Program-made: the position numbers and the translations under genes
Shown here: piece by piece, positions 2,796 to 59,921 of the stretch
Layout of the letters: each line of letters begins with the position of its first letter
Position numbering within the stretch: position 1 is the first letter of the stretch
Source of the DNA: an uncultured virus (IMG/VR IMGVR_UViG_3300046171_000179)
Taxonomy: Duplodnaviria; Heunggongvirae; Uroviricota; Caudoviricetes; Crassvirales
IMG/VR virus record: IMGVR_UViG_3300046171_000179
DNA: 64,000 bases
Strand: one strand, 5' to 3'
Notes under the pieces: model-generated
Database searches by the model: none
Seen by the model: the letters and a program-made list of their open reading frames with translations, nothing else
Told to the model about the DNA's origin: nothing

Positions 2796-3128
2796 ATGGG
2801 ATACCAGCAACCGTTTAAATTCAGTAACGGGAAATCACCTTTCACTAAGAAAGCTGAACCTAGAAGAACGATTGGCCCAGGTAAAAATTTCAATAAAGCA
2901 AATCCAACAGGTACTGGTGCAGCTGCAGGCGGGGGTATGACACAGAAAGGTGTTAACGAATATAAACGTAAAAACCCTGGTAGTAAATTAAAAACTGCAG
3001 TTACAACACCTCCTTCTAAATTAAAAAAAGGAAGTAAAGCTGCTGGTAGACGGAAATCATTCTGCGCAAGATCACGAGGCTGGACCGGTGAAAGAGGTCG
3101 AGCAGCTCGCCGCAGATGGAACTGCTAA
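2796..3128 (+). CDS. Basic protein, DUF6321-like
   Basis: GGMTQKG...GSKLKTAVT...RRKSFCARS...RRWNC pattern. Confidence 0.65.
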   Translation: MGYQQPFKFSNGKSPFTKKAEPRRTIGPGKNFNKANPTGTGAAAGGGMTQKGVNEYKRKNPGSKLKTAVTTPPSKLKKGSKAAGRRKSFCARSRGWTGERGRAARRRWNC

Positions 3129-25212: not shown

Positions 25213-25405
25213 ACTTGAAAAAGTTATTAAACAAAATATTGATTTATCTGAACTAGATCCTGAAAAAGCTAAAACAGCAGCTCAAGCCAAATGGGTTGCA
25301 ATAGAAGATTCATTAAAGATTATAGAAAAAATTGAAGAGTTATCTGATAAAAAATCTAATACAGAATCTAAAACTTTTTTAGGTGTTGAAAATAGAATCA
25401 AATAA
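25163..25405 (+). CDS. Hypothetical protein, possible small terminase
   Basis: Helical 80-aa ORF coupled to terL. Confidence 0.5.
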   Translation: MDRRKRIIQAAEKALVELEKVIKQNIDLSELDPEKAKTAAQAKWVAIEDSLKIIEKIEELSDKKSNTESKTFLGVENRIK

Positions 25406-27636
25406 TGTACAAACAAACGCTTTATAAAATACACAATGCTCATTTATCTGATAAAAAAATTAAACATCTTAATAAACATAAGAAGTTTGAATATGGATAT
25501 AATGAAGAATTAGACTGTGTTGTAATAAGTAAAGATGGTACAATAGGTGATATATATGAAATACAAGGTCTTAAGGTAGCAATACCTAAAACTCCCAACA
25601 AAATAGATGGAGAAGACTTAAAACAAACAGATCAATATTTTAGAATAAAAAATAAACCAGAATCTTTAAATAAAATAAAAAGCATATATGATTTTCAATC
25701 TTACCCAGAGGATATTAAAGAAAAATACTACCAATATATTGATAGTGAGTTTAATTATCGTAATGATGGGTATTGGTTCATGTGCAACGGTGCCCCGAAC
25801 TACATTACAGGATCGCACTATGTCTATTTATCCTGGACAAAGATCGACGTGGGAGCACCAGATTTTAGGCAGGCAAACAGGATATTTTACTACTTCTGGG
25901 AGGCTTGCAAGGCAGATAAGAGATCTTATGGAATGTGCTACCTTAAGAACAGACGGTCTGGCTTTAGCTTCATGGCATCCTCAGAGACTGTTAACTTGGC
26001 AACAACTTCCAAGGACTCTAGATTTGGGGTCTTATCTAAAACTGGAGCAGATGCGAAGAAGATGTTTACAGACAAGATTGTACCCATATCAATCAACTAT
26101 CCATTTTTTTTCAAACCAATACAGGATGGGATGGAACGACCAAAGACGGAGTTATCCTATAAGATACCGTCAAGAAGACTTACCAGAAACGCCATCAAAG
26201 AGACCTATAGTCAGGAGGAATTTGGGAAGGGGCTCGATACAACAATCGATTGGAAGAACACGGGAGACAACTCGTATGATGGAGAGAAATTACAACTCCT
26301 CGTCCATGATGAATCCGGTAAATGGGAGAGGCCGGACAATATACTCAACAACTGGAGAGTCACGAAAACGTGCCTCAGGCTCGGTGCCAAAGTAGTAGGT
26401 AAATGTATGATGGGATCTACATCTAATGCTTTAAATAAAGGTGGAGATAACTTTAAAAAATTATTTTATAATTCAGATGTCACAAATAGAAACCGCAATG
26501 GCCAGACTACAAGTGGACTATATTCTTTGTTCATACCTATGGAGTGGGGATACGAAGGGTTTATTGACAAATACGGATATCCTGTCTTCGATACACCATC
26601 AGACCCGATTGAAGGAATTGATGGGGAAAAAATATTTACGGGAGTCATTGATCATTGGGAAAATGAAGTAGAAGGATTAAAAAAAGATAGTGATGCTTTA
26701 AATGAATATTACAGACAATTTCCAAGATCTGAAAAGCATGCTTTTAGAGATGAAACAGTTAATTCATTATTTAATTTAACTAAAATATATGAGCAAATAG
26801 ATTTTAACGAAGAAATGGCTATTAAAGGTTATGTTGTTCGTGGAACTTTTGCTTGGCAAAATGGTATAAAAGATACTAAAGTTATATGGGTTCCTAGTAA
26901 AAATGGTAGATTTAAAATATCATGGATACCGCCAGATAACATACAAAATAATATAATCATAAAAAATGGTATTAAATATCCTGGTAATGATGGCTTCGGA
27001 GCCTTCGGGTGTGATAGTTATGACATCAGCGGTACTGTTGGGGGTGGTGGGTCTAATGGTGCTCTTCATGGATTAACTACTTTTTCTATGGTGAATGATG
27101 TGCCTAATACTAAGTTTTTCTTAGAATACATAGCACGACCACAAACAGCAGAAATATTTTTTGAAGAAGTATTAATGGCATTAGTGTTTTACGGTATGCC
27201 AATACTTGCTGAAAATAATAAACCAAGATTATTATATCATTTAAAAAGAAGAGGTTATAGAGGTTTTTCTATGAACAGACCTGATAAACTTTTAGGTAAT
27301 TTATCTAAAACAGAAATAGAATTAGGAGGTATACCAAATACATCTGAAGATATAAAACAAGCACATGCGGCTGCTATTGAATCTTATATAGAAGATTATG
27401 TAGGACGTAAAGAAGAAAATCATGGTAATATGTATTTTCAAAAAACATTAGAAGACTGGGCGCGTTTTGATATATCAAGAAGAACATCTCATGATGCATC
27501 CATAAGTAGTGGACTTGCAATTATGGCGTGTAGAAAACATATGTATAGGCCTAATATGGAAAGAACAATAAAAAAAATAGATTTTCGTTTTGCAAAATAT
27601 AAAAACGACGGATCAATGAGTAAGATAATACAATAA
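25405..27636 (+). CDS. terL: Terminase large subunit
   Basis: KNRRSGFS Walker A, LLVHDESGK Walker B, FGCDSYD nuclease. Confidence 0.93.
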   Translation: MYKQTLYKIHNAHLSDKKIKHLNKHKKFEYGYNEELDCVVISKDGTIGDIYEIQGLKVAIPKTPNKIDGEDLKQTDQYFRIKNKPESLNKIKSIYDFQSYPEDIKEKYYQYIDSEFNYRNDGYWFMCNGAPNYITGSHYVYLSWTKIDVGAPDFRQANRIFYYFWEACKADKRSYGMCYLKNRRSGFSFMASSETVNLATTSKDSRFGVLSKTGADAKKMFTDKIVPISINYPFFFKPIQDGMERPKTELSYKIPSRRLTRNAIKETYSQEEFGKGLDTTIDWKNTGDNSYDGEKLQLLVHDESGKWERPDNILNNWRVTKTCLRLGAKVVGKCMMGSTSNALNKGGDNFKKLFYNSDVTNRNRNGQTTSGLYSLFIPMEWGYEGFIDKYGYPVFDTPSDPIEGIDGEKIFTGVIDHWENEVEGLKKDSDALNEYYRQFPRSEKHAFRDETVNSLFNLTKIYEQIDFNEEMAIKGYVVRGTFAWQNGIKDTKVIWVPSKNGRFKISWIPPDNIQNNIIIKNGIKYPGNDGFGAFGCDSYDISGTVGGGGSNGALHGLTTFSMVNDVPNTKFFLEYIARPQTAEIFFEEVLMALVFYGMPILAENNKPRLLYHLKRRGYRGFSMNRPDKLLGNLSKTEIELGGIPNTSEDIKQAHAAAIESYIEDYVGRKEENHGNMYFQKTLEDWARFDISRRTSHDASISSGLAIMACRKHMYRPNMERTIKKIDFRFAKYKNDGSMSKIIQ
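25688..26395 (+). CDS. Overprinted +1-frame ORF, lipoprotein-like (235 aa)
   Basis: Long stop-free frame; KK + hydrophobic + IGSC; host codons locally G/C-ending. Confidence 0.6.
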   Translation: MIFNLTQRILKKNTTNILIVSLIIVMMGIGSCATVPRTTLQDRTMSIYPGQRSTWEHQILGRQTGYFTTSGRLARQIRDLMECATLRTDGLALASWHPQRLLTWQQLPRTLDLGSYLKLEQMRRRCLQTRLYPYQSTIHFFSNQYRMGWNDQRRSYPIRYRQEDLPETPSKRPIVRRNLGRGSIQQSIGRTRETTRMMERNYNSSSMMNPVNGRGRTIYSTTGESRKRASGSVPK

Positions 27637-27638
27637 CT

Positions 27639-30070
27639 ATGGCAATAACAACAGGACAACTTCCTACACAATTTCCGAGTCAAGCTGTCTCAGATGAAGA
27701 AAAAATGTCTTCTGAATATGGTTTATCGGTTGGAAGGGCTATTGAACAAGAATGGTTCAATAAAGATAATAACCCCGGTATGTATTATCAAACCAATGAA
27801 GAGTTTCACAGGTTAAGATTATATGCTAGAGGTGAGCAGTCTGTTAAAAAATATAAAGATGAATTTGCTATAAACGGTGATTTGTCTTATTTAAATTTAG
27901 ACTGGAAACCTGTACCTATTATTCCTAAATTTGTAGATATCGTTGTAAATGGTATGCAAGATCGACTTTTTGATATAAAAGCTTTTGCGCAAGATCCTAT
28001 ATCAACAGGAAAAAGAACAGATTTTGTAAATAAAGTTCAAAGAGATATTAATGCTCAATCTTTATTAAAACAAATAGAAGCTGAAGTAGGTGTTGATGCT
28101 AGAAATATCAAACAAGATGATATGCCTACAAATACAGAAGAACTTGAATTATACATGCAATTAGCATATAAACAAGGTATAGAAATAGCTGAAGAACAAG
28201 CTATTAATAATGTTTTTCTAACAAATAAATATCCAGAATTAAAAAAACGCGTTGATTATGATTTAGCTGTATTAGGCATAGGAGCTGTAAAAAACACGTT
28301 TAACAATACAGATGGTATAAAACTAGACTATGTAGATCCCGCAAATTTAGTTTGGTCTTATACTGAAGATCCTAATTTTGAAGACTGTTATTATTTTGGA
28401 GAAATTAAAAGAATAAATCTTAACGAACTTAAAAAACAATTTCCAAATTTACCAAATGAAGAAATAGCAGAATTTGTTAAAAAAGGTTCTAATTGGGTTG
28501 ATTATAATAATAACTGGTTTAATAATAATTTTAATAGCGAAATAGATAATAATAATACACTTACTGTATTATATTTTAATTGGAAAACTTGGGAAAACAA
28601 CGTTTATAAAATTAAAGAAACATCTACTGGTGCTGATAAAGCTATATTAAAAAATGATAAATTTAACCCACCACAAGATAAAAGAACAAGATTTGAAAGA
28701 GTAGCACAAGCTAGAGAGGTTGTTTATGAAGGAGCTTATATATTAGGTAGTAATATACTACTTAAGTGGCAAAAAGCAAAAAACATGATAAGGCCTAGTT
28801 CAAATACTAATAAAGTATTAATGAACTATACTGTATCAGCTCCAAGAATGTATAAAGGTAATATAAATTCTTTAGTTTCTAAAATGACGCCTTATGCTGA
28901 TTTAATTCAGTTAACACATTTAAAACTACAACAAACAATACAAAGAATGGTTCCATCAGGTGTTTTTATAGATGCTGATGGTATTGCAGAAGTTGATTTA
29001 GGTAATGGAACTAATTATAATGCTCAAGAAGCATTAAACATGTATTTTTCTACAGGTTCTATTATTGGTAGATCTTTAACTGTAGAAGGTGATCCTAATC
29101 CAGGTAAAGTGCCAATACAAGAATTACCTGGAACTCAAGGTAATCAAATACAAATATTAGTAGCAGCATATAATCAGTATCTTCAAATGATAAGAGATAT
29201 TACTGGTTTAAATGAAGCTAGAGATGGTTCTGATCCTGATCCAAATTCACTAGTTGGAGTACAGAAATTAGCAGCAGCAAACAGTAATACAGCTACAAGA
29301 CATATATTATCATCAAGTATGTATATAACATTGGCCTTAGCTGAGGCTATATGTTTAAGATTTAAAGATGTATTAGAGTTTCATCCTACAAAAGAAGCTT
29401 TTATTGATTCACTTAGGTCAGATTTTCAGTAGGATCTTTAGAAGAAATGAAAAACTTACATTTGCATGATTTTGGTATATTTTTAGAATTAGAACCAGAT
29501 GAAGAAGAAAAATCTTTATTAGAAGCTAATATACAGGCTGCATTATCAAGAGATAGTATTAATTTAGAAGATGCTATTGACATACGTGAGATAAAAAATC
29601 TTAAACTTGCTAATCAAGTTCTTAAGATAAGACGTATTAAAAAACAACAGATAGATCAACAAATGGCCCAAGCGGCTAGCGTTGCTCAAGCTGAAGCACA
29701 AGGAGCTGCTCAAATACAAATAGAAGAAGCAAAAGCTCAAGCAGAACAAGTTAAAACAGAATCTAAAATTCAATATAGACAAGCTGATATTGAGTTTGAA
29801 ATTAAAAAATTAGAAGTAGAAGCCCAAACAAAAAGAGAGCTTATGCAGTTTGAATATGATTTAAATGTTAAATTAAAAGCTCTAGAATTAGAAGCTCAAA
29901 AAGAATTAGTAGAAAAACAAAATGAAACAGCTGTTGAAGTTGCTAATTTAAAAACATCTGCTAAAAGTTTATCAGGTCCACCTCAAACAGGTAAACCAGC
30001 TAAATCATTTGAATCTAAAGGAAATGATGTTTTAGGTGGTATTGATTTAAGTAGATTTTCACCTAAATAA
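27639..30070 (+). CDS. Portal protein, split by apparent frameshift near 29420
   Basis: Follows terL; LDWKPVPIIPKFVDIVVNG; removing two extra C restores SLGRFSVGSLEEMKNL. Confidence 0.85.
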
Positions 30071-30100: not shown

Positions 30101-31363
30101 ATGGAAGAACAAGAAAAAGTACAAGTTAAGGTTGTTGCAGACGATAGTCCAGCACCTACTAAACAAGAACAAGAAGCTGCTGTATTAGATCAAGCAGTAG
30201 AAACTGGGGAAGTTGCGTCTGAATATGGCTTACAAGACGATGGTGTTTATAAAATCAATTTAGATAAACCTCCCGTGCAAAACAAGGAAGAAAATGCCGT
30301 TCAAGAGCGAAAAACAGAGGAAGTTTCTGTGGATGAATCATCCGGAGATAGCAAAGAAGTGGACAAAGAAGTACGGGAACAGTCCAGTGAAAAAAACGAA
30401 CCCGTTCAAGCTGAAGAAAAAGTATTAAAAGAAAATGAATCTCCTTTAGAGCTAATTAAAGAAGATGAAGAAACTGTTGTTAAAGAAGAAGAACCTTCAA
30501 TAACAGCTGAACAAAAAGAAGAAGTTAAGGAAGCTGAAAAACAAATGCTTCCTGAAAACGTAGAAAAGCTAGTTACATTCATGGAAGAAACTGGTGGTTC
30601 TTTAGAAGATTATGTTAATCTAAATAGAGACATCAGTAAATATGATAATACTACTTTAATGCGTGAATATTATAAAAGTACAAAACCGCATTTAAATCAA
30701 GATGATATTGAGTTTATTCTTAATAAAAATTTTGGTTATGATGCAGAGACGGAAGATCCGTCAGATGTTAAAGCTAAACAATTAGCTTTTAAAGAAGAAT
30801 TATTTAATGCTCAAAACCACTTTAAAACAAGTAAGGAAAAATATTATGCTGATCTTAAGTTAAGAAAGCAAAACAATATTGATCCTGAATATAAAAAAGC
30901 TTATGAGTATTATAATGAACAACAAAGTTTAATAAAAGAAAGTGAAACTTTACAAAAAGATTTTTTAAATAAAACAAGTAATGTTTTTTCTGACGATTTC
31001 AAAGGTTTTGATTTTAGCGTAGGAAAAAATAAATATCGTTTTAAAGTAGAAAATCCATCTCAAGTTAAAGAATTTCAATCTGATATTAAAAATTTTGCTA
31101 ATGAATTTATCGGTAAAGATGGCACTATTACAGATGCTAAAGGTTATCACAAAGCTTTATTTGCCGGAAGAAATGCAGATAAAATAGCTAATCATTTTTA
31201 TGAGCAAGGCCGTGCCGATGCTATAAAAGAACAAGCTAAAGCTGCAAAAAATATTGATATGTCTCCGAGAGTAGATAATTCTAGTATTGTAAATTCAAAT
31301 GGTCAAAAAGTTAAAGTTGTTTCTGGAAATGACTCTTCTAAATTGCGAGTTAAATGGAAATAA
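30101..31363 (+). CDS. Putative scaffold/head assembly protein
   Basis: Acidic N-terminus; HFYEQGRADA; between portal and MCP. Confidence 0.7.
   Translation: MEEQEKVQVKVVADDSPAPTKQEQEAAVLDQAVETGEVASEYGLQDDGVYKINLDKPPVQNKEENAVQERKTEEVSVDESSGDSKEVDKEVREQSSEKNEPVQAEEKVLKENESPLELIKEDEETVVKEEEPSITAEQKEEVKEAEKQMLPENVEKLVTFMEETGGSLEDYVNLNRDISKYDNTTLMREYYKSTKPHLNQDDIEFILNKNFGYDAETEDPSDVKAKQLAFKEELFNAQNHFKTSKEKYYADLKLRKQNNIDPEYKKAYEYYNEQQSLIKESETLQKDFLNKTSNVFSDDFKGFDFSVGKNKYRFKVENPSQVKEFQSDIKNFANEFIGKDGTITDAKGYHKALFAGRNADKIANHFYEQGRADAIKEQAKAAKNIDMSPRVDNSSIVNSNGQKVKVVSGNDSSKLRVKWK
30294..30428 (+). CDS. Overprinted +1-frame 44-aa basic peptide
   Basis: MPFKSEKQRKFLWMNHPEIAKKWTKKYGNSPVKKTNPFKLKKKY; local G/C3 shift. 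Confidence 0.75.
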   Translation: MPFKSEKQRKFLWMNHPEIAKKWTKKYGNSPVKKTNPFKLKKKY

Positions 31364-31385: not shown

Positions 31386-32975
31386 ATGGCATTTACAGTA
31401 GGCATACCAGCCGCTTTACAACCAACCCAGAGCAAAACAATGTATCCTGGGAACTATATCGATTTTACTGATGCGAATTTTGCTCAGTGGGGTCAACAAT
31501 TTTTACCTGATGTATACGAAAAAGAAGTAGAAAGATATGGAAACAGATCTATCGGTTCTTTTTTACGTATGGTATCAGCGGAAATGCCTTCCACTTCAGA
31601 TCAAATAATCTGGACTGAGCAAGGTAGATTACACACACGTTATGCTAACGTTATTCCTTTAAATAACGCAGGAACGCTTCCAGGTGGAGCTACTCCAGGC
31701 GCTATTGTAGCAGGTGTATCAGGTACAGCACTTAACTTTAGTGTACCAACTGCACAACCAAGAAGCACAGGAATTACTACAGATAAAACTGAGCCTGTAA
31801 ACTTTAGAGTTGGAGAAACAGTAATGGTACAAGTTCAAACTACAGCTACATCAGCTGTTGGTGGAACTGGCGAAGTAATAAAAGGAGTTGTAACTGCAGT
31901 AGCAGGACAAAACTTTCAAATCAAATGTTACGTTGCTCACAATGGAATCTTAGTAGGAGATAGAGTAACAGCTATTTCTTATGGATCTGAATTTGCTAAA
32001 GGTACAGGTACTTTTACAGAGTCTTTAAATCCTAGCTACGCTACATTTACCAACTCACCTATTATCTTAAAAGAAAACTATGCAATCAATGGTTCTGACA
32101 CAGCTCAGATCGGTTGGATTGAAGTTACTTCTGAGAATGGTGCTAGTGGGTATTTATGGTATATGAAGTCTGAACACGAAAATAGATTACGTTGGGAAGA
32201 TTACATTGAAATGTCTATGGTTGAAGGTGTTCTTAAGACAGGTGGACAAGGTGGTGCTAATGGAATAGCTTTAGGCTATACTACAGGTGCTAGCTCAATT
32301 ACTGTTGGTGGAACAAACCAAAACGCTAAAGGTACTGAAGGTTTCTTTGCTGCTCTTGAAGCACGTGGAAATGTATATCAAGGATTTGGATCTCAAGCAG
32401 CTGCTCAAGCAGGTGGTGGAGCATTAACAGATTTTGATGCAGTACTTAAACAATTAGACAAGCAAGGAGCTATTGAAGAAAACATGCTTTTCTTAAATCG
32501 TGAACTTTCTTTAGAGATTGATGACATTCTTGCAATGCAAAATGGTGCATATGCTGGAACAGCTAACCACGCTCACGGTACATCTTACGGTGTATTTAAC
32601 AACAGCGCGGATATGGCATTAAATCTTGGATTTACAGGATATCGCAGAGGATCTTATGACTTTTACAAAACTGACTGGAAATACTTAAATGACTGGTCAA
32701 CTCGTGGAGGTTTTGGTGATGTTGAAGGTGTATTAGTACCAGCAGGAACTTCTACAGTTTACGATCAGCAATTAGGTCAAAATATCAAGCGACCATTCTT
32801 ACACGTTCGTTATAGAGCTTCAGAAACTGAAAACAGAAAGAATAAATCTTGGATTACAGGATCTGTTGGAACTTCTAGCCCTACAACTGACATTGATGAA
32901 ATGAGAGTTATCTACTTAAGTGAAAGATGTCTTATTACTCAAGCTGCTAATAATTTCGTATTATTTAAAGCTTAA
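31386..32975 (+). CDS. Major capsid protein
   Basis: QQFLPDVYEKEVERYGNR, IIWTEQGRLH, SERCL; synteny; followed by strong terminator. Confidence 0.88.
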   Translation: MAFTVGIPAALQPTQSKTMYPGNYIDFTDANFAQWGQQFLPDVYEKEVERYGNRSIGSFLRMVSAEMPSTSDQIIWTEQGRLHTRYANVIPLNNAGTLPGGATPGAIVAGVSGTALNFSVPTAQPRSTGITTDKTEPVNFRVGETVMVQVQTTATSAVGGTGEVIKGVVTAVAGQNFQIKCYVAHNGILVGDRVTAISYGSEFAKGTGTFTESLNPSYATFTNSPIILKENYAINGSDTAQIGWIEVTSENGASGYLWYMKSEHENRLRWEDYIEMSMVEGVLKTGGQGGANGIALGYTTGASSITVGGTNQNAKGTEGFFAALEARGNVYQGFGSQAAAQAGGGALTDFDAVLKQLDKQGAIEENMLFLNRELSLEIDDILAMQNGAYAGTANHAHGTSYGVFNNSADMALNLGFTGYRRGSYDFYKTDWKYLNDWSTRGGFGDVEGVLVPAGTSTVYDQQLGQNIKRPFLHVRYRASETENRKNKSWITGSVGTSSPTTDIDEMRVIYLSERCLITQAANNFVLFKA

Positions 32976-35509: not shown

Positions 35510-38500
35510 ATGCCAGAAATTAAAAGAACATTCAATGTCGGTAAAATGAACCGAGATCTGGATGATAGAATAGTACCTGCCGGTGAATATCGAGAAGGTT
35601 TTAATATTAATATCGGGCAATCAGAAAGCTCAGATGTTGGTGCAGTTGAAAATTTATTAGGTAATGAATTAGTAGCACAAAGTGGACTTGCTAATGGTAA
35701 ATGTATAGGTCAAGTAGCTGATACTGGTGCAGAAAAAATATATTTTCTTGTTACTACAAATTCAATATATAATGAAACCAACAGTGGTCAGCATGGTTTA
35801 TTTGAATATGATCAAAAAACAAAACAACTTACAGCTTTAATTGTTTCAACACAGTTAAATTTACATCAAAATTATCCTGTAACAGGTATAAATATAGTTG
35901 ATGACCTTTTATTTTGGACTGATAATAGAAATTATCCTAGAAAAATAAATGTAGTAACCGCAAGAAACAATACTTCTTACTATACTGCAGCTGCAGATAT
36001 AGATAATTTAATATCTGTAGCTAAGTTTACACCATACGAATCCCCAACTATTGTTGCGGCAACTAGAGAATCTAGTATATCTTCTACTTTTATGGAAGAT
36101 AAACTTATTAGATTTTCATATAGGTGGCAGTTTGAAGATAGTGAGTATAGTGTATTAGCTCCATTTTCTCCTATACTTTTTTCAAGATTAAATGAAACTG
36201 ATACAATAAGTACTTCACTGTCAAATTTTGGTGAAATAGAAACTTTTGTTAACGCAATAAATCAAGTACAACTACAAATACCTACACCAACCGGATATGG
36301 TATTACAAGTGTTGAATTAATATACAAAGAGTCTGGATCAGGTACTTTATATGTTGTTGATGATCAAGAAATTACAACAGAACCTTTTGTAAACTTTACA
36401 TATTCTTCAACCGATCCATTTAGAACTTTGCCAGGTGATCAGCTTACTAGGGTTTATGATGCTGTACCTATTAAAGCTAAAGCACAAGAAGTTGCTGGTG
36501 GTAGATTAGTTTATGGAAATTTTTTACAAAATTTTGACATACCTAATATAGCTTTTAGTGTTGAAAGAACAGGTGAAACATCTGCTAGAAATAATATTTT
36601 AACAAATCAATCAGTTAAATCAAGAAGAACATATCAGGTTGGTATTGTATTAGCTGATAAATTTGGTAGACAATCACCTGTTATATTATCTAGCTCTGGT
36701 ACTGATACTGTTTTCATAGATCCAGGTTATGGTAATGCATCATCAACAACTGCTTTTAATGCATTGAGAATAGTATTTGCAGACACAACACAGATACCAA
36801 CATGGGCTTATTCATATAGAGTTGTTGTAAAACAACGTGAACAAGAATATTATAATTGGATATCTACTATTGATGCTGCTAACACGGTTAATCGTTTTGG
36901 CGATAGTATAAATAAAATACCTAGAGATCAAACAGCTGCAATACCTCCTAGTACTTCAGCAACAATATCTCCATGTAATGTATCTGTTTATCCTAAGTAT
37001 TTAGCTGGTGGAAATGTTTATACATCTCCATATGCGGCTTTAACTTCAGTACAATCTATTTCAAATCCTTCAGGTGATGCAACTGTTACAACTATTGATA
37101 ATAGCGGTAACGCAGTATCTACTGGTTTATGTGTTTTTGAAACAGAACCTGTTAGCTCTGAGTTAGATATATTTTATGAAACATCTACAGGAGGTTTAGT
37201 TGAGGATATTCCTGCTACTGCTATTGATATAGAATTTTTTAACTGTATATTGTTAACTTTTACAGCGGGTAATCATGTAGAAATAAATAGAATTAAAGCA
37301 GGTTTTAATCAACCGTTTTTTGATGTAGGTGTTAGAGCTTATGTAGTGCAAGAAAACTTTACTCAAGAAAGAAGAAATAATACTCTTATACATTCTAGTG
37401 GACTTTTAAACTCTAGAACTGGTATTAACTACATAAATCAATTTAATGAATCTGAGGGTGGTCTAACTATCTCTCTTGATCCACTAAATGGTTCTGTACA
37501 GAAAATGTTTGTTGATGATACGCAGATATTAATATTTCAAGAAGATAAAGTATCTAGATCACCTATTGATAAAAACTTTATATATGCAGCTGAAGGTGGC
37601 GCAGTGCCAGTTACAAGTAATACACAATTTTTGGGAACAGTAGCTGCTTATGCTGGTGAGTTTGGTATATCAAACGATCCTCAATCTTTTGCAAGTTTTG
37701 GTTTTTCAAGATATTTTACAGATAAAAATAGAGGTACTGTATTAAGATTATCTCAAAATGGTATTACTGAAATATCACAAGTTGGTATGGGTGATTTTTT
37801 TAGAGATGCTTTAAAACAATCTACGTCTATTATAGGATCTTATGATGAGTATAGTCGTATGTATGAATTAACTATTATAGGCCAAGGCTTTGATAGTAAT
37901 GAAGATACAAATGCAGCTACAGCATCAGATGGATATTTAACAGTTACTTTTGATGATAGATCAGGTGGGTGGACAAGTTTTAGAGGTTATAAACAAGAAG
38001 GTGGTTTATCATTAAATAATACATATTATACTTTTAACGGTGGTCAATTATGGCAACATCACAGTACTAATGTAACTAGAAATAATTTTTATAACTCTGG
38101 AACACAAGAGTCTTATGTTATACCTATATTTAACGACGCTCCATCGCTTGTAAAACAATATAACAGTTTAAGTTATGAAGGCGATACTGGCTGGGAGTTA
38201 GAGTACATAGAAACAGATATAAGCGCTTCAGGAACACTACCAGTTTTAGCAACATCTTTTACAACAACCCTACAATTAAATGGTGCTGCACCTAATTCTG
38301 TATTTAATGGAGCTAATACTGCTCAAGCTAAGCAAGGTGATAATGTTCAATGGGCTATTTTTGTATCACCATTAAACTCTCAATTTGCTTTTAACAACGT
38401 AAACGATATAACATTAACTCCAGCTTCTGGAAGTAGTTTAAGTGTAACAAATCCCGTTGGAACTCCTCCGTTTGAATCTACAGATGGAAGATTAGTATTT

Positions 38501-39499
38501 TTAGTTCAACACACTGTTGGAAACGCTAATAGCATACAAACTTTAAACATAGGAGGTACAGGCGCTTCTTTAGCATTTACTGTAGCTTTGTTGACCGTAA
38601 ACATTATAGATACTGTTTCAAACTCTTCAATAACTCCAGCTTCACAAGTGTTTAATAATGCTGGAAGTAATAGTGTTATATTTAGTACAGCTGTTGAAAA
38701 CAACTATTATATAGATACAGCTAACGTAACTGTTAGTGTGCTTGGGATGCCAGCTTCTACTAATCCTGGAACTTTAACAAATGTAAGGAGTGGAGTTGGA
38801 GGTTGTAGTGCATGTTTGGATAATTTAACTTACACTTTACCAATAACAGTTCCTTCAACAGCAACAGCTGGAACAATAACAGTAAATGGATCAGCAACAT
38901 TAAAATATACCTTACAATTAAATCAAGGTAATGTAGCGGCACCTACGGGTGGAACTGTTAATTATAGCACACCTGTTCAATCGAGCGGAGCAACAACAAC
39001 TATAGGTACACCTTTTTATAATTCTCCATTTGATTTAGCAAGTACTAGAACTGTTGTTATAACATACACATGTGCAACAACTGAAATACTTGTTGATAAT
39101 AGTTATGTTTTATCTGGTTTTCCAACTGGCACTACACCAACTCCTGTTTTAAGTAACGAAGATGGTCAACTAGCGATAACTCAAGTTATACCTATACTTA
39201 CACAAGATACAGTTGTAACTCCAGTTGTAGATTCAACAGTAGGAGCAGTTGCAGCAACATTAGGTAATACTTCTACAATAAATCTACCTCAACCTGGTAG
39301 TGCACAAACTATAGCTAGTACTTGGAATGTTAATGGATCTGCTTCACCAGGTTCTCCAACCGCCTCTTGGTTATCTTTAGATTCTGCTGCTTCTGGCGTA
39401 GCTATATCGTTATCTCCAGGAGTTTCTTTTACAGTTTCGGCGCTACTGAAAATAAACGGAGCTCATCAAGATCCCGAACTATTACTTAGCAACAACTAA
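35510..39499 (+). CDS. Tail stabilisation/muzzle protein with S/T-rich C-terminal extension
   Basis: GKMNRDLDDR, LFWTD.RN.PRKIN, YFTDKNRG.VLRLS, GWTSF; 3' end uncertain. Confidence 0.8.
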   Translation: MPEIKRTFNVGKMNRDLDDRIVPAGEYREGFNINIGQSESSDVGAVENLLGNELVAQSGLANGKCIGQVADTGAEKIYFLVTTNSIYNETNSGQHGLFEYDQKTKQLTALIVSTQLNLHQNYPVTGINIVDDLLFWTDNRNYPRKINVVTARNNTSYYTAAADIDNLISVAKFTPYESPTIVAATRESSISSTFMEDKLIRFSYRWQFEDSEYSVLAPFSPILFSRLNETDTISTSLSNFGEIETFVNAINQVQLQIPTPTGYGITSVELIYKESGSGTLYVVDDQEITTEPFVNFTYSSTDPFRTLPGDQLTRVYDAVPIKAKAQEVAGGRLVYGNFLQNFDIPNIAFSVERTGETSARNNILTNQSVKSRRTYQVGIVLADKFGRQSPVILSSSGTDTVFIDPGYGNASSTTAFNALRIVFADTTQIPTWAYSYRVVVKQREQEYYNWISTIDAANTVNRFGDSINKIPRDQTAAIPPSTSATISPCNVSVYPKYLAGGNVYTSPYAALTSVQSISNPSGDATVTTIDNSGNAVSTGLCVFETEPVSSELDIFYETSTGGLVEDIPATAIDIEFFNCILLTFTAGNHVEINRIKAGFNQPFFDVGVRAYVVQENFTQERRNNTLIHSSGLLNSRTGINYINQFNESEGGLTISLDPLNGSVQKMFVDDTQILIFQEDKVSRSPIDKNFIYAAEGGAVPVTSNTQFLGTVAAYAGEFGISNDPQSFASFGFSRYFTDKNRGTVLRLSQNGITEISQVGMGDFFRDALKQSTSIIGSYDEYSRMYELTIIGQGFDSNEDTNAATASDGYLTVTFDDRSGGWTSFRGYKQEGGLSLNNTYYTFNGGQLWQHHSTNVTRNNFYNSGTQESYVIPIFNDAPSLVKQYNSLSYEGDTGWELEYIETDISASGTLPVLATSFTTTLQLNGAAPNSVFNGANTAQAKQGDNVQWAIFVSPLNSQFAFNNVNDITLTPASGSSLSVTNPVGTPPFESTDGRLVFLVQHTVGNANSIQTLNIGGTGASLAFTVALLTVNIIDTVSNSSITPASQVFNNAGSNSVIFSTAVENNYYIDTANVTVSVLGMPASTNPGTLTNVRSGVGGCSACLDNLTYTLPITVPSTATAGTITVNGSATLKYTLQLNQGNVAAPTGGTVNYSTPVQSSGATTTIGTPFYNSPFDLASTRTVVITYTCATTEILVDNSYVLSGFPTGTTPTPVLSNEDGQLAITQVIPILTQDTVVTPVVDSTVGAVAATLGNTSTINLPQPGSAQTIASTWNVNGSASPGSPTASWLSLDSAASGVAISLSPGVSFTVSALLKINGAHQDPELLLSNN

Positions 39500-51198: not shown

Positions 51199-52941
51199 TT
51201 ATCCATCACAGGATATACAGTTTGGATCCATAGCTTTAGCAGCTATATCACCTCTTAGAACTGATTCAGTTCTCATATAATAAAGAGTTTTTATACCCCT
51301 TTTCCAAGCTTCAAAATGGACTTTATTAACCCATCTTGGCTCAGCCTCCGCAGGAAATGCTAGATTTAATGATACTGATTGATCAATATAATCTTGCCGT
51401 ATTCCAGCTTGTCCAACTAACTCCAGTTGGTTTATCTCTTTAAACGTTTTATAAACGTTCTTGACAGACTCGCCTTCTTCTTGAGTTAGTCGTCCGAGGT
51501 GGTCGTAAAACCATCCATCGAGTTCTTTAATTCCTTGAATGGATCCACCATCTTCCAGAATTTTATCCCAAGTTTCTTTGGTATCAATACCAACTTTCTT
51601 AAGTACTTTCCTAAGTTCATTGTTTTTTCTTATAAATGTTCCTTTAGCTGATTGTTCTGTAAAAACATTAGCTGCCCAAGGCTCTATGCCTGGCGATATG
51701 TTACCACTTAATTTACTATTAGAAACTGTAGGCGCTACAGATCTTAAATGTGTATTTCTAAAACCTGTACCTACACACCACAAAGGCTCACCATATATCT
51801 CAGCAAGCTTACGTGATGCTCTTTCTGTTTCAATTTTAATCTTACTGAATATTTCTCTAGTTTTAAACTGAGCTAAAAGCCCTTCAAAAGCTATTCCCTT
51901 CTTCTGTAACAGCGTGTGCCAGCCTAATACACCTAAACCTATGGCTCGGCCTTTTTCCGCTGATCTAATAGCGTTTTCAAAGCCTTTCATATTCTTAGCT
52001 TTTTGTATAAACTCCTCCATTACACCATCTAAAAACCATGTAGCATCATAGATAAGATTAGTATTTTTCCACTCATCGTATTTAGCAAGATTTAAAGATG
52101 ACAAGCAACAAACAAAACTGTGGCTTTCATCTGTATGTAGTGTTATTTCACTACATATATTAGTCATATGTACCTTTAAGCTATTCGACTTGTAAGCAGG
52201 TGGATTAGCCTTGTTCGTATTACCTTTAAAGAGGATATACGGCTCCCCAGTAGCTTTACGTTTTTGGAGTAGCTTGGACCATCTTTGTCGTGCTTCTTGA
52301 TCTCCGCTCTCGAGCTTTCGCATAAACTTATCGCCAACGACAGCACACTGATGTAGGTTAAGAGATTGCCTGTTGACGTCACCTTTAGGTTCTCTAATTT
52401 CCAACCATTCATCAAAATCAGAGTGTTCGATATTGAGATTAACGGATGCAGCTCCTCTACGTACTGATCCTTGATTGGTCGCGAGTATAGTTGAGTCATA
52501 GATTTTGCAAAAAGGGACAACTCCATCTGATGTTCCATTACCTGTAATTTTAGATCCGGCAGGGCGTATCATATTGATGCCTATACCTACTCCGCCGCCG
52601 TGTTTAGCAAGTAGCATCATTTCTAAGTTCTTGTTACCTATATCATTTATGCTATCAGCAACATCAATACCAAAACAAGAGATAGGTAAACCTCTGTCTG
52701 TACCTGTATTAGATAACACAGGTGATGCTAAACATAGCCAGCCTTTCCAGATGTAGTCAAAAAACTGTTCTGCTAGCTCTGGTTTATATAACCTTCTAGC
52801 AACAGCATTTGAAACACGCGTGTAAGCTTCTCTAGGTGATTCACCCATCAAAAGATATCCACCGATAATAGTTTTCTTATAAACATCAGTATCACCCCAG
52901 TTAGGATAATCTACACCTTTTTTCCAATCGTTATTCCACAT
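51199..52941 (-). CDS. nrdA: Ribonucleotide reductase class Ia alpha (short, no ATP cone)
   Basis: PISCF, TNICSE, VAPT.S, KTLYY, C-terminal CISC. Confidence 0.95.
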   Translation of the reverse strand: MWNNDWKKGVDYPNWGDTDVYKKTIIGGYLLMGESPREAYTRVSNAVARRLYKPELAEQFFDYIWKGWLCLASPVLSNTGTDRGLPISCFGIDVADSINDIGNKNLEMMLLAKHGGGVGIGINMIRPAGSKITGNGTSDGVVPFCKIYDSTILATNQGSVRRGAASVNLNIEHSDFDEWLEIREPKGDVNRQSLNLHQCAVVGDKFMRKLESGDQEARQRWSKLLQKRKATGEPYILFKGNTNKANPPAYKSNSLKVHMTNICSEITLHTDESHSFVCCLSSLNLAKYDEWKNTNLIYDATWFLDGVMEEFIQKAKNMKGFENAIRSAEKGRAIGLGVLGWHTLLQKKGIAFEGLLAQFKTREIFSKIKIETERASRKLAEIYGEPLWCVGTGFRNTHLRSVAPTVSNSKLSGNISPGIEPWAANVFTEQSAKGTFIRKNNELRKVLKKVGIDTKETWDKILEDGGSIQGIKELDGWFYDHLGRLTQEEGESVKNVYKTFKEINQLELVGQAGIRQDYIDQSVSLNLAFPAEAEPRWVNKVHFEAWKRGIKTLYYMRTESVLRGDIAAKAMDPNCISCDG

Positions 52942-53429: not shown

Positions 53430-54391
53430 ATATCTTCAAAATCTTCTCCTTCATTTGCTTTGGAATAATCTGTGGGACGTACAGCAAAAAAGTCAGTATG
53501 AGTGTGGCCACCAGTGAGATGGTAAAACCAATCGAGTCTGCTTGCTGCTTTGTCATCGTACTTAAAGTACTTCCCGAGGTGCTTGTATCCAAGCTCAAGC
53601 AGTTTTTCATTAAGTCTTTTTCTAATAAATTGTTTGAGATCGTAGGCTTTAAGGTTTTCAATATCTCCTTGTTCGAACATTTTATCAATGTATCGCTCTT
53701 CTGCTTTAAGCATTGCTTCTGCTGCATTTGTAACATCTTTTTTACAGTCTTCTAATAAATGATTATCTTCTTGACACATGTGTCTAAATAATTGGCAACC
53801 CATTTTACTGTGTAGTGATTCATCGCGAACAGACCACTTCATTTGTTGACCAATACCTTTTAAAAGGTTTCTTAATTGGAAGCTATATAACACAGCAAAA
53901 GCAGAATATAAACTAACTCCTTCAGCAAAAGCGCTAAAAATAGCCAACGATTTTGCAATACCAACTCTATCAGTTCCTTCATAGCTAACTAAGGTATTAA
54001 AACGTTCCATTGTAGCTTCATCTTGTAAGAAAGCTTCAAAATCTTCTAGGCCTAATGTTTCATTAAGATAACTATAAGCAACCGCGTGTATAGTTTCTTG
54101 GCTACCAAACATCATAGCCATTTGTTTTATCTCATGCTTAGGAAACCACGATACAACTTTTTGGGTCCAATAATCAGATACCGCACACTCAGTTTGCGCA
54201 AATCCCAAAAGTATATTTCCAACCAAGTTCTTCTCTGCTTTGGTAAGCTTTTCGTTCCAATCCTTGACATCACCTGACATCGGTATCTCGGTATGAAGCC
54301 AGAATGCTTGAGCTTGTTTAAGCCATCCCTCAGTATAGTACTCTGGATATTCAAACGGTTTGTATGCAATTCTTTCATCAAATAATCCCAT
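53423..54391 (-). CDS. nrdB: Ribonucleotide reductase beta
   Basis: ETIHAVAY, EGVSLYSAF, RDESLH diiron motifs. Confidence 0.95.
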   Translation of the reverse strand: MGLFDERIAYKPFEYPEYYTEGWLKQAQAFWLHTEIPMSGDVKDWNEKLTKAEKNLVGNILLGFAQTECAVSDYWTQKVVSWFPKHEIKQMAMMFGSQETIHAVAYSYLNETLGLEDFEAFLQDEATMERFNTLVSYEGTDRVGIAKSLAIFSAFAEGVSLYSAFAVLYSFQLRNLLKGIGQQMKWSVRDESLHSKMGCQLFRHMCQEDNHLLEDCKKDVTNAAEAMLKAEERYIDKMFEQGDIENLKAYDLKQFIRKRLNEKLLELGYKHLGKYFKYDDKAASRLDWFYHLTGGHTHTDFFAVRPTDYSKANEGEDFEDIW

Positions 54392-58211: not shown

Positions 58212-59921
58212 CTATCCTTCCCAAGGCATTGAATCTAACTCTTGTTGATACGGTATGTAGTCGCCTGAGTCTTTATTCCATTTAAAGTGTGCCTCTGCTT
58301 GGTTTTCTCCAAGGTTTTGAAACTTAACTTTAAGTACTTTAACCTTAACTGTTTTATTAGTGTAATTCCTATGAACAAGAAGCCCGTGATAACTAGCATC
58401 ATACCACTCACCACCTCCTTTAATAGAATACATTGTCGGTTCATCCATTGTTCCATCATCTTTCTTATACATTTTAGTTGGGTGAGCTACAACAATAACA
58501 AGTACATCATGCTTTTTTGCAAAAGCTTCTATACGTGTTAAGTATTCCATCGTTGCATCAGGTATACTCATTGCACTAGCTCCGTTCATTTTTACTTTAT
58601 TATATGGATCTATAACTAAACACTTTATACCTTTACGTTTAACTAATTCAGCACCTTTGTTTAGCACAGAATCAAGATCATATCTTTCATTTTCTATAAA
58701 GTAAAAGTTATCATCTACTAGTTCTGTAACTTGATTCCACTTATCTGTACCTATATCTTCTTTCTTAGGCATCCAACCTCCTATCTTACGTATTAATTTA
58801 TGAGTATGTAAGAATGTAGGTTTGTTCTCTGGTGAAGCAAATGCTGTTTTCCAGCCGTACTTCATTTGGTAACCCACCACCATTCGATCAACAAAATCAG
58901 ACTTCCCACTGCTAGGAACGCCTGTAACGGTGATGAATTGCCCTGTGTAAGTAGAGAATATGCTATCAAAGTTATCAAGACCGACTTGATAACCAGGTTT
59001 AAAACCTTCATGAATAAATTCTTGTAGTTCATCATTTACATCTTTTAAGGTTACTACATTTTCAAGAGGAACAGGACTAGCTGTATCAACAAGACGCTTG
59101 AGCATAGTATTGCCGTAGCGTAACATATATTCATTAGCATCTTTACAGTCGTTAAAGTCAACTGTATAACATACCTCTGCTCCGAACCGTCTAATGAGTT
59201 CTTGCTGTAGATTTTGTCCTGCTTCATCTTTGTCAACTGCAATGATAATTTTGGATTTGTCATCGAAATATTCAATGCAATTATCAAGGTAATCAAGGTT
59301 AAGGCGGTTAAGAGTAGCTCCGTTTGGTACACTGACCACACTGTCGATCTTAGAATCCACAAAAGATAAAGCATCCATTTCGCCTTCCACAATAACAACA
59401 TAATCACGGCCAATAGTACTATCAATATTATAGAATACTTTTTCGGCACCTTTAACAAGTTTAAAGTTTTTTCTACCATCTCTATATTTTATATTTATAA
59501 GTTCGTTATTAATAAAATAATTAAATTGAATAGTGTTCTCAACTTTAGAGGTCTGTGGCATCCACTCAGAACCTTCAGATATTCTCATCTTAATAAGTGT
59601 TCGTTGTGAAATGCCTCTGTCCTCAAACCATTTAACAGCTCTATCGCTTATAAGTACATTATTATGCCATTCAGGTTTTGTATATACTTTATTTACATCT
59701 CCTTTACGTTGAAAGGTATGTAACTGAAATACCTCATCACAATTCATACAAGTACCAAGACCACGTTCCCAATCATACATAGCACATTTTGCTTTACGAT
59801 TCTCAGGTTTTCTATCAGCAGAGCAAAGAGGACAAGTGCCCTCTTTTTTCCCTACTTCAAGATCATACTGATTGAACTGGTCAATAGTAAATCCGTTGAT
59901 CTCTGTATTGTTAATTGTCAT
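58212..59921 (-). CDS. Primase-helicase (T7 gp4/Twinkle-like)
   Basis: CPLC/CMNC Zn site, IVEGEMD and D.DEAG TOPRIM, GVPSSGKS, VIDP, VVAHP. Confidence 0.93.
   Translation of the reverse strand: MTINNTEINGFTIDQFNQYDLEVGKKEGTCPLCSADRKPENRKAKCAMYDWERGLGTCMNCDEVFQLHTFQRKGDVNKVYTKPEWHNNVLISDRAVKWFEDRGISQRTLIKMRISEGSEWMPQTSKVENTIQFNYFINNELINIKYRDGRKNFKLVKGAEKVFYNIDSTIGRDYVVIVEGEMDALSFVDSKIDSVVSVPNGATLNRLNLDYLDNCIEYFDDKSKIIIAVDKDEAGQNLQQELIRRFGAEVCYTVDFNDCKDANEYMLRYGNTMLKRLVDTASPVPLENVVTLKDVNDELQEFIHEGFKPGYQVGLDNFDSIFSTYTGQFITVTGVPSSGKSDFVDRMVVGYQMKYGWKTAFASPENKPTFLHTHKLIRKIGGWMPKKEDIGTDKWNQVTELVDDNFYFIENERYDLDSVLNKGAELVKRKGIKCLVIDPYNKVKMNGASAMSIPDATMEYLTRIEAFAKKHDVLVIVVAHPTKMYKKDDGTMDEPTMYSIKGGGEWYDASYHGLLVHRNYTNKTVKVKVLKVKFQNLGENQAEAHFKWNKDSGDYIPYQQELDSMPWEG

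Follow-up and report, generated by a model that had tools for sequence, protein, structure and literature searches.

A conserved basic-peptide gene nested in the +1 frame of a probable head scaffold gene of an uncultured Crassvirales phage

Nested phage genes are usually either lineage-specific genes that arose de novo or spanins fixed to one partner, and the product of phiX174 gene D, within which gene E lies, is an external scaffold. The E-in-D arrangement (PMC8227390) is, like the locus described here, a complete internal overlap on the same strand of a phage assembly gene; it differs in that E is a de novo overprinted frame encoding a membrane lysis protein, whereas in our case the nested frame is widespread and apparently the older one, the host segment appears derived, and the predicted product is soluble and basic. 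The embedded spanins of lambda, Rz and Rz1 (PMC6139136), likewise place a small gene in a larger one, and embedded, overlapped and separated forms exist; in that survey, no single spanin family combines the embedded with the overlapped or separated architecture, and the partner is always the i-spanin. The MPFKS family, to which our nested peptide belongs, occurs in contrast in four forms: as a free gene, with a 3' overlap, fused at the N terminus of longer proteins, and nested within unrelated hosts. An embedded o-spanin of the Rz1 kind was considered and rejected, as the peptide has no cysteine, lipobox, hydrophobic signal or transmembrane segment and the host protein is acidic and soluble. 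No sequence or structural similarity was found between the peptide and the T4 internal proteins, the genes of which are, to our knowledge, not nested. T4 offers a functional analogy only, in that IPI-III are small proteins loaded with the scaffolding core and the capsid-targeting sequence is an N-terminal module able to stand at the head of other proteins (PMC9958956). Our literature search, confined largely to open-access journals, returned no description of the peptide family or of the arrangement; the only match for "MPFKS" in the phage literature was an unrelated sequence, and the available text of PMC7077304 does not mention Elemovirus.

The window, by which we mean the whole stretch of 64,000 nucleotides analysed here (IMG/VR record IMGVR_UViG_3300046171_000179), belongs to a marine phage that probably infects Flavobacteriia; the source runs that contain the stretch are mostly seawater. 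The host gene of the nested frame (30101..31363, + strand) encodes 420 residues with an acidic, helical C-terminal part. It is found in the neighbourhood of the terminase gene, between the portal gene (27639..30070, +; phrog_6547) and a gene (31386..32975, +) matching phrog_13704, "virion structural protein", at an E of 1e-87, which from its position and size we infer to encode the major capsid protein. The break in the portal frame at 29411/29421 comes from two surplus bases, which the contigs of four runs out of four lack, and is an error of the window sequence. No match to the host gene was obtained in Pfam, PHROG, NCBIfam or PDB, and scaffold families of the Atlas appeared at 0.79-0.80 only. 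Its position, acidity and helicity are those of a scaffold, the helicity being taken from a poor single-sequence model (pLDDT 44.5), and we conclude that it is probably the head scaffold; the "scaffold-like" label given in the first-pass annotation is thus supported by position and composition, with no family match behind the name.

The nested gene (30294..30428, +) consists of 135 bases, or 44 codons followed by TAA, and lies entirely within the host ORF, offset by one base and beginning at host codon 65. Its assignment as an MPFKS-family basic peptide rests on translation, homologues and conservation. Translation reproduces the 44-residue peptide reported earlier and upholds the accompanying claim of an acidic and a basic product from the same bases: the host "shadow" segment, codons 65-109 (30293..30427, +), is a predicted coil with a net charge of -7, and the peptide has a net charge of +12, with means of -8.5 and +13.3, respectively. 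Upstream of it, host codons 20-55 (30158..30265, +) form a conserved N-terminal segment under frame-0 purifying selection, and a conserved C-terminal domain follows (30548..31363, +), which is 35% identical to the "structural protein" gp27 of Elemovirus. The sequence itself is secure, since an independent contig of run X1 matches positions 30230-30621 without a difference and one of run X15 matches 30151-30554 with a single difference. AF2 predicts a helix-Pro-helix hairpin (residues 6-15 and 17-27; 30309..30374, +) that constitutes the conserved core of the family, with invariant M1, F3, S5, Q8, P17, A20 and W23 and the two helices flanking Pro17; the Lys-rich tail (residues 28-44; 30375..30425, +) is variable and modelled with low confidence. 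The mean pLDDT of the peptide model is 73.9, and blocks within residues 1-30 score 80, 88 and 77.

That both frames code is borne out by the host-gene loci, for which we took the best 80 of 579, retrieved with the host protein alone and 54-100% identical to it. An ATG-started MP.. ORF occupies the slot in 79 of these, and the remaining, truncated locus (L075) retains the tail of the ORF, so that the start codon and the open +1 frame are indeed kept across scaffold homologues. The host ORF is intact in the 79 full loci, with exceptions found elsewhere (L101, L211, L230 and L237). Substitutions were compared in 17 disjoint pairs drawn from 45 type-A genes: at frame-0 codon positions 1, 2 and 3, the differences are 0.087, 0.026 and 0.242 in codons 20-55, and 0.077, 0.042 and 0.191 in the C-terminal domain, as against 0.131, 0.031 and 0.041 in the nested core, where amino acid change per site amounts to 0.063 for the +1 protein and 0.153 for the frame-0 host protein. 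Substitution at the slot is therefore patterned by the +1 frame; the host frame, for its part, is free of stops and conserved on both flanks, and from this we conclude that both frames are coding. The same test was negative for a long +1 ORF in the terminase gene and thus discriminates.

The idea that the +1 frame is no gene, and simply arises from a conserved acidic motif of the host protein or from some signal at the nucleotide level, draws on the facts that a Glu-rich frame yields a Lys-rich +1 frame and that recoding the host segment at random with synonymous codons gives an ATG and 44 open codons in 2,097 of 20,000 cases, about 10%, so that openness alone is weak evidence. However, when scored with an HMM for which 28 free-standing homologues were the sole input, the real peptide reaches 75.2 bits, a score attained by none of the 20,000 recodings (maximum, 44.2). 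The better conservation of the +1 protein than of the host protein and the discriminating substitution test also speak against this idea, as do the -1 frames of the free homologues, which are filled with stops: only 1 of 37 free copies has that frame open, and T is used at 141 of 286 junction sites where it would create a host stop in free copies and at 0 of 502 in nested copies, the latter count being partly built in because nested loci are defined by an open host frame. We regard a noncoding +1 frame as hardly credible. A programmed +1 frameshift joining the scaffold N terminus to the peptide was rejected given that the ATG is retained and free homologues begin at the same residue, and a downstream restart of the host protein was rejected on the strength of frame-0 selection on codons 20-55. 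The shift of host codons toward G/C endings, noted previously, is present and modest (GC3 is 0.29 in the segment and 0.13 outside it within the gene, with corresponding first-position values of 0.67 and 0.50). The nested gene thus lies inside another gene in a different frame, is under purifying selection in its own frame, leaves the host frame functional and has an initiation signal of its own, the last read from the sequence pattern. Stand-alone homologues exist and both the ATG and the frame are conserved, so that the inference of a real nested gene stands on each of the two points at which it could have failed, and we consider the gene at 30294-30428 almost certain to be real.

Homologues encoded as free-standing small genes had been proposed, and this proved right: the peptide has 93 close homologues at E ≤ 0.01, and 39 of 79 peptide loci were classed as free, one of them being a frameshifted scaffold fusion, alongside 36 scaffold-nested loci and 4 others, among which L119 alone is convincingly nested. 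At L101:3001-4044, the peptide is fused in frame with the scaffold C-terminal domain by a one-base shift and the scaffold N terminus ends at a stop; this single case is an assembly error or a mutant. A profile of 57 sequences finds 3,228 clusters at E ≤ 0.001, and free copies occur in cultured phages, namely P-RSP2, S-CBS2, 023Pt_psg01, C75C1 and Streptomyces phages; those infecting Flavobacteriia, Prochlorococcus/Synechococcus and Streptomyces share a near-identical type-A core. We examined 31 of 41 free-type loci, with near-duplicates dropped and selected representatives of the BLAST clusters named: 23 have a portal, GroES, scaffold or capsid gene as neighbour, 4 come after a virion structural gene, 1 lies among tail genes, 1 lies by a DNA polymerase gene, and 2 have no assignment. 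The family is thus encoded mostly in head operons. The module starts within 5 residues of the N terminus in 138 of the top 150 matches, a number that includes 63 of the 64 proteins longer than 100 residues. Among 392 peptides, the first 32 residues contain no cysteine in 371, one in 1 and two in 20, in the registers 12-22, 11-29, 13-20 and 13-24; this pairing suggests disulfides and an oxidising, extracellular setting. The module is also found at the front of long proteins that are hypervariable and Gly-rich and in which GG motifs recur (P0098-P0233; L122, L133, L135 and L159), some of which are encoded directly after a virion structural gene and are candidate ejection proteins.

Searches of PHROGs, Pfam, NCBIfam and PDB sequences with the peptide gave no usable match, Foldseek returned one row at E 8.3, VIA-align reached a best Z of 2.6, and the ESM Atlas showed only unnamed clusters around the peptide; for so small a helical model, a missing fold match is uninformative. 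DUF3008 was discarded as an identity, there being no Pfam match and only an Atlas neighbour at 0.84 with 15% DUF3008 members. The nearest family is PHROG 1375, which carries no functional annotation: a type-C allele matches it at E 1.4e-5 and many long module-bearing proteins match it weakly (E 6e-4 to 0.01), whereas the window peptide itself gives no match. The link drawn earlier between the peptide and the small basic proteins of the window through SP.KK and PFK motifs is literally present, with SPAK three times in ORF 2317 and PFK in ORF 2796, but the motifs are not conserved; among 64 unique nested peptides, SP.K occurs in 10 and PFK a second time in 4, and the motif argument therefore carries little weight.

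At least five peptide types occupy the scaffold slot. On a tree of 76 C-terminal domains, the distribution of type B needs at least three changes on well-supported branches, and monophyly of type B was rejected (p-AU 0.00018, on a 32-row subset and with a test chosen after the first tree had been seen). For pairs such as L004/L005 and L043/L054, the cassette is 51-67% identical compared with 71-98%, mostly about 90%, in 45-base blocks outside it (flanks, 71-100%). On these comparisons, alleles are exchanged at the scaffold slot with boundaries at the cassette. Types A and B share no profile similarity; of the 29 type-B loci, 26 are scaffolds, 2 are very long ORFs and the last is truncated. Two DNA-pattern scans, with a pattern that favours stop-free codons, extended the range of hosts. 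Among the 80 loci listed of at least 120 in the first scan, 65 are scaffolds, 2 broken scaffolds, 5 giant genes and 1 a small gene, and 7 are not nested; the second scan gave 63 loci, 26 of them nested, including 19 in giant ORFs that fall into 7 BLAST-unlinked groups, which may still share remote homology. Nestings in giant genes show the same suppression of third-position change. Neither the exchange of alleles nor these other host genes had been noticed in the first-pass annotation. GC-rich apparent nestings (L116, L131, L132, L377/382/407, L412 and L416) were not counted as hosts. Conservation demonstrates dual coding, and both the use of several host genes and the mosaicism of alleles are likewise established. 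A profile of the host shadow segment retrieved 331 proteins, the top 120 of which are mainly scaffolds, about 40 copies of a 120-residue protein, the C terminus of which overlaps the peptide, and 6 giants; the acidic "DAVQE..T" motif seen in 331 phage proteins is then probably the shadow of the gene and not a functional motif of the host protein.

Elemovirus (Flavobacterium phage elemoF_6-3D, NC_055853) resembles the window in its gene order of GroES, terminase, portal, structural gp27 and virion structural gp26, in the 35% identity of gp27 to the C-terminal domain of our host protein, and in having an unannotated MPFKS-type +1 ORF. It differs in that the nested gene, a Cys-pair allele, lies at codon 1221 of the giant gp18 and not in the scaffold-position gene, which is shorter and without a nested copy. 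The same gp18 (L433) contains at codon 883 a second basic +1 ORF of 40 residues (net +12) with an A-rich leader. Complete records G002 and G003 also have the copy in a giant gene and none in the scaffold, and the 2,341-residue giant of the window has no copy; "one copy per genome" is nevertheless a statement of limited sensitivity, as the A1 profile missed the Elemovirus allele. Gene callers evidently miss copies, given that the nested one of Elemovirus and the free ones of P-RSP2 and S-CBS2 are unannotated. The cultured pair of Elemovirus and Flavobacterium sp. BAL314 makes translation and function directly testable.

The nested gene is preceded by an A-rich initiation region without a Shine-Dalgarno (SD) motif (30279..30293, +), and the leader described at first reading does carry A at -3, -6, -12 and -13. 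These four are positive determinants in F. johnsoniae, which does not use SD (PMC6847099). All four are found in 40 of 65 nested leaders, that of the window included, versus 6 of 28 control ATGs in acidic contexts, and positions -3 and -6 are both A in 59 of 66 nested leaders versus 254 of 1,049 other +1 ATGs; part of this signal comes free, since acidic host codons favour As at -3, -6 and -12 as well as Lys in the +1 frame. An SD motif occurs in none of 65 scaffold-nested leaders and in none of 7 leaders in Flavobacteriia-type giants, which are linked to Elemovirus-type phages, as against 14 of 15 other giant leaders, with 26 of 489 for control ATGs. The hosts of phages with SD-leader giants presumably use SD; in the genomes of these phages, the counts of SD at long-ORF starts (5/17 versus 1/5) form too small a sample. 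Folding of the mRNA around the nested start is nothing out of the ordinary (z -0.15), and a scan with a sigma-70 model, whose reach excludes promoters of Bacteroidota, revealed no internal promoter above chance.

With respect to origin, PMC8227390 gives a distribution criterion for deciding which of two overlapping frames is ancestral. By this criterion the peptide frame would be ancestral, because it is distributed more widely than the host segment, and the latter would be a derived acidic shadow. Outgroup scaffolds have no nested segment, and the family does not look like a de novo overprint, with its 3,228 clusters and its free copies in cultured cyanophages and Streptomyces phages. In the mechanism we propose, ribosomes translating the scaffold would read the nested bases as an acidic, unstructured linker, other ribosomes would start independently at the +1 ATG behind the Bacteroidota-type A-rich leader and make the 44-residue hairpin with its Lys-rich tail, and both products would come from one head-operon mRNA. 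Purging of stops from the -1 frame, with L194, L216 and other terminal overlaps as plausible intermediates, would have made a dual-coding cassette that a permissive acidic linker can accommodate, and the purged cassette could then have been inserted into, or exchanged between, acidic-linker sites. The picture is of one apparently old and very large family that is free, overlapped, fused or nested and switches both allele and host gene. At slightly less than even confidence, our working hypothesis is that the MPFKS family consists of widespread small internal-virion peptides on a portable dual-coding cassette, which recombination can insert into unrelated capsid-lumen genes (scaffold, giant virion proteins), replace there and move from one to another, the stop-free -1 frame serving as an acidic linker and the start signal staying matched to the host. 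If true, this would be a reversed form of overprinting, in which the host has written itself over the guest, and a conserved virion gene would be hidden in a large share of aquatic podovirus-like genomes.

As to function, we give an even chance to an independently translated helical hairpin with a basic tail that acts as a DNA-associated polycation inside the head, where it would be loaded with the scaffold or core and would help to pack or eject DNA. The role is suggested by the charge of the peptide, its head-operon context, the virion genes that host it and the pairing of its cysteines; translation, virion location and DNA binding are presumed. RNA libraries yielded contigs across the region, though these are no demonstration of transcription, and no fold, family or solved homologue names a function. 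Cys pairs, moreover, occur in only 20 of the 392 peptides and could also bind metal, types A and B are dissimilar at the profile level, and one free copy lies by the DNA polymerase gene and another among tail genes. The swapping of alleles fits an arms race better than plain neutralisation of DNA, and the presence of at least five types at one slot, exchanged at cassette boundaries, would suit a packaged and injected counter-defence or host-takeover factor whose alleles turn over in such a race. The peptide is small, basic and encoded in a head operon, and T4 IPI provides a precedent for such a factor (PMC9958956). We nonetheless find this reading rather unlikely, as the core is under purifying selection and its near-identity in type A, from phages of Flavobacteriia to those of Prochlorococcus/Synechococcus and of Streptomyces, is hard to square with a single host-specific target.

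A comparably low probability attaches to the hairpin serving as a tag for capsid loading or assembly, with scaffold, portal or capsid as its binding partner, the free peptide modulating assembly and the longer proteins using the module as an N-terminal address. The N-terminal position of the module and the low complexity of its long carriers, which in 4 loci follow a virion structural gene, would agree with such a tag, for which T4 again has an N-terminal capsid-targeting sequence (PMC9958956). The module is found, however, alongside unrelated scaffolds and capsids, which makes a specific partner hard to name, and none of 69 long proteins has a Pfam match, so that a cargo role is a guess. Very unlikely, in our estimation, is a peptide that is translated but not packaged and acts late in the cytoplasm, in nucleic acid or ribosome binding or in lysis timing. 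Head operons do hold late genes of many functions, and a polycation could conceivably bind RNA; against this stand the paired cysteines in four registers and, for a role in lysis, the lack of a transmembrane segment or signal. The DNA-associated polycation inside the head is the reading we favour.

Several further observations concern overlapping frames and small proteins in the window and its relatives. The terminase gene (25405-27636) contains a +1 ORF of 235 codons (25688-26395) with a hydrophobic N terminus and Cys, in a region where host GC3 is 0.42-0.54 compared with about 0.1-0.2 elsewhere. A +1 ORF of at least 100 residues is found in 42 of 80 terminase loci and one of at least 200 residues in 20 of 80; no amino acid constraint was found in this frame, which is possibly a young or weakly constrained overprinted gene. 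A second nested basic +1 ORF of about 39 residues, with a weak match to phrog_6310, lies at about host codon 123-132 in 10 of 90 unique scaffold genes (L024, L040, L045, L046, L047, L052, L057, L062, L079 and L108), shows +1-frame constraint (0.186/0.045/0.077) and has no copy in the window. Long off-frame ORFs of 74-141 residues lie inside minus-strand genes at 59054-59479, 52176-52538, 54127-54381 and 58235-58459 (all - strand). The product of 35510-39499 is a virion protein with a weak match, below the cut-off, to the C terminus of the crAss muzzle protein (PF25729, E 9e-4). Lastly, a cluster of free-standing genes at 636-977, 977-1189, 2317-2793 and 2796-3128, next to a GroEL gene, encodes small and very basic proteins with net charges of +18 to +45, including SPAK repeats and one DUF6321.
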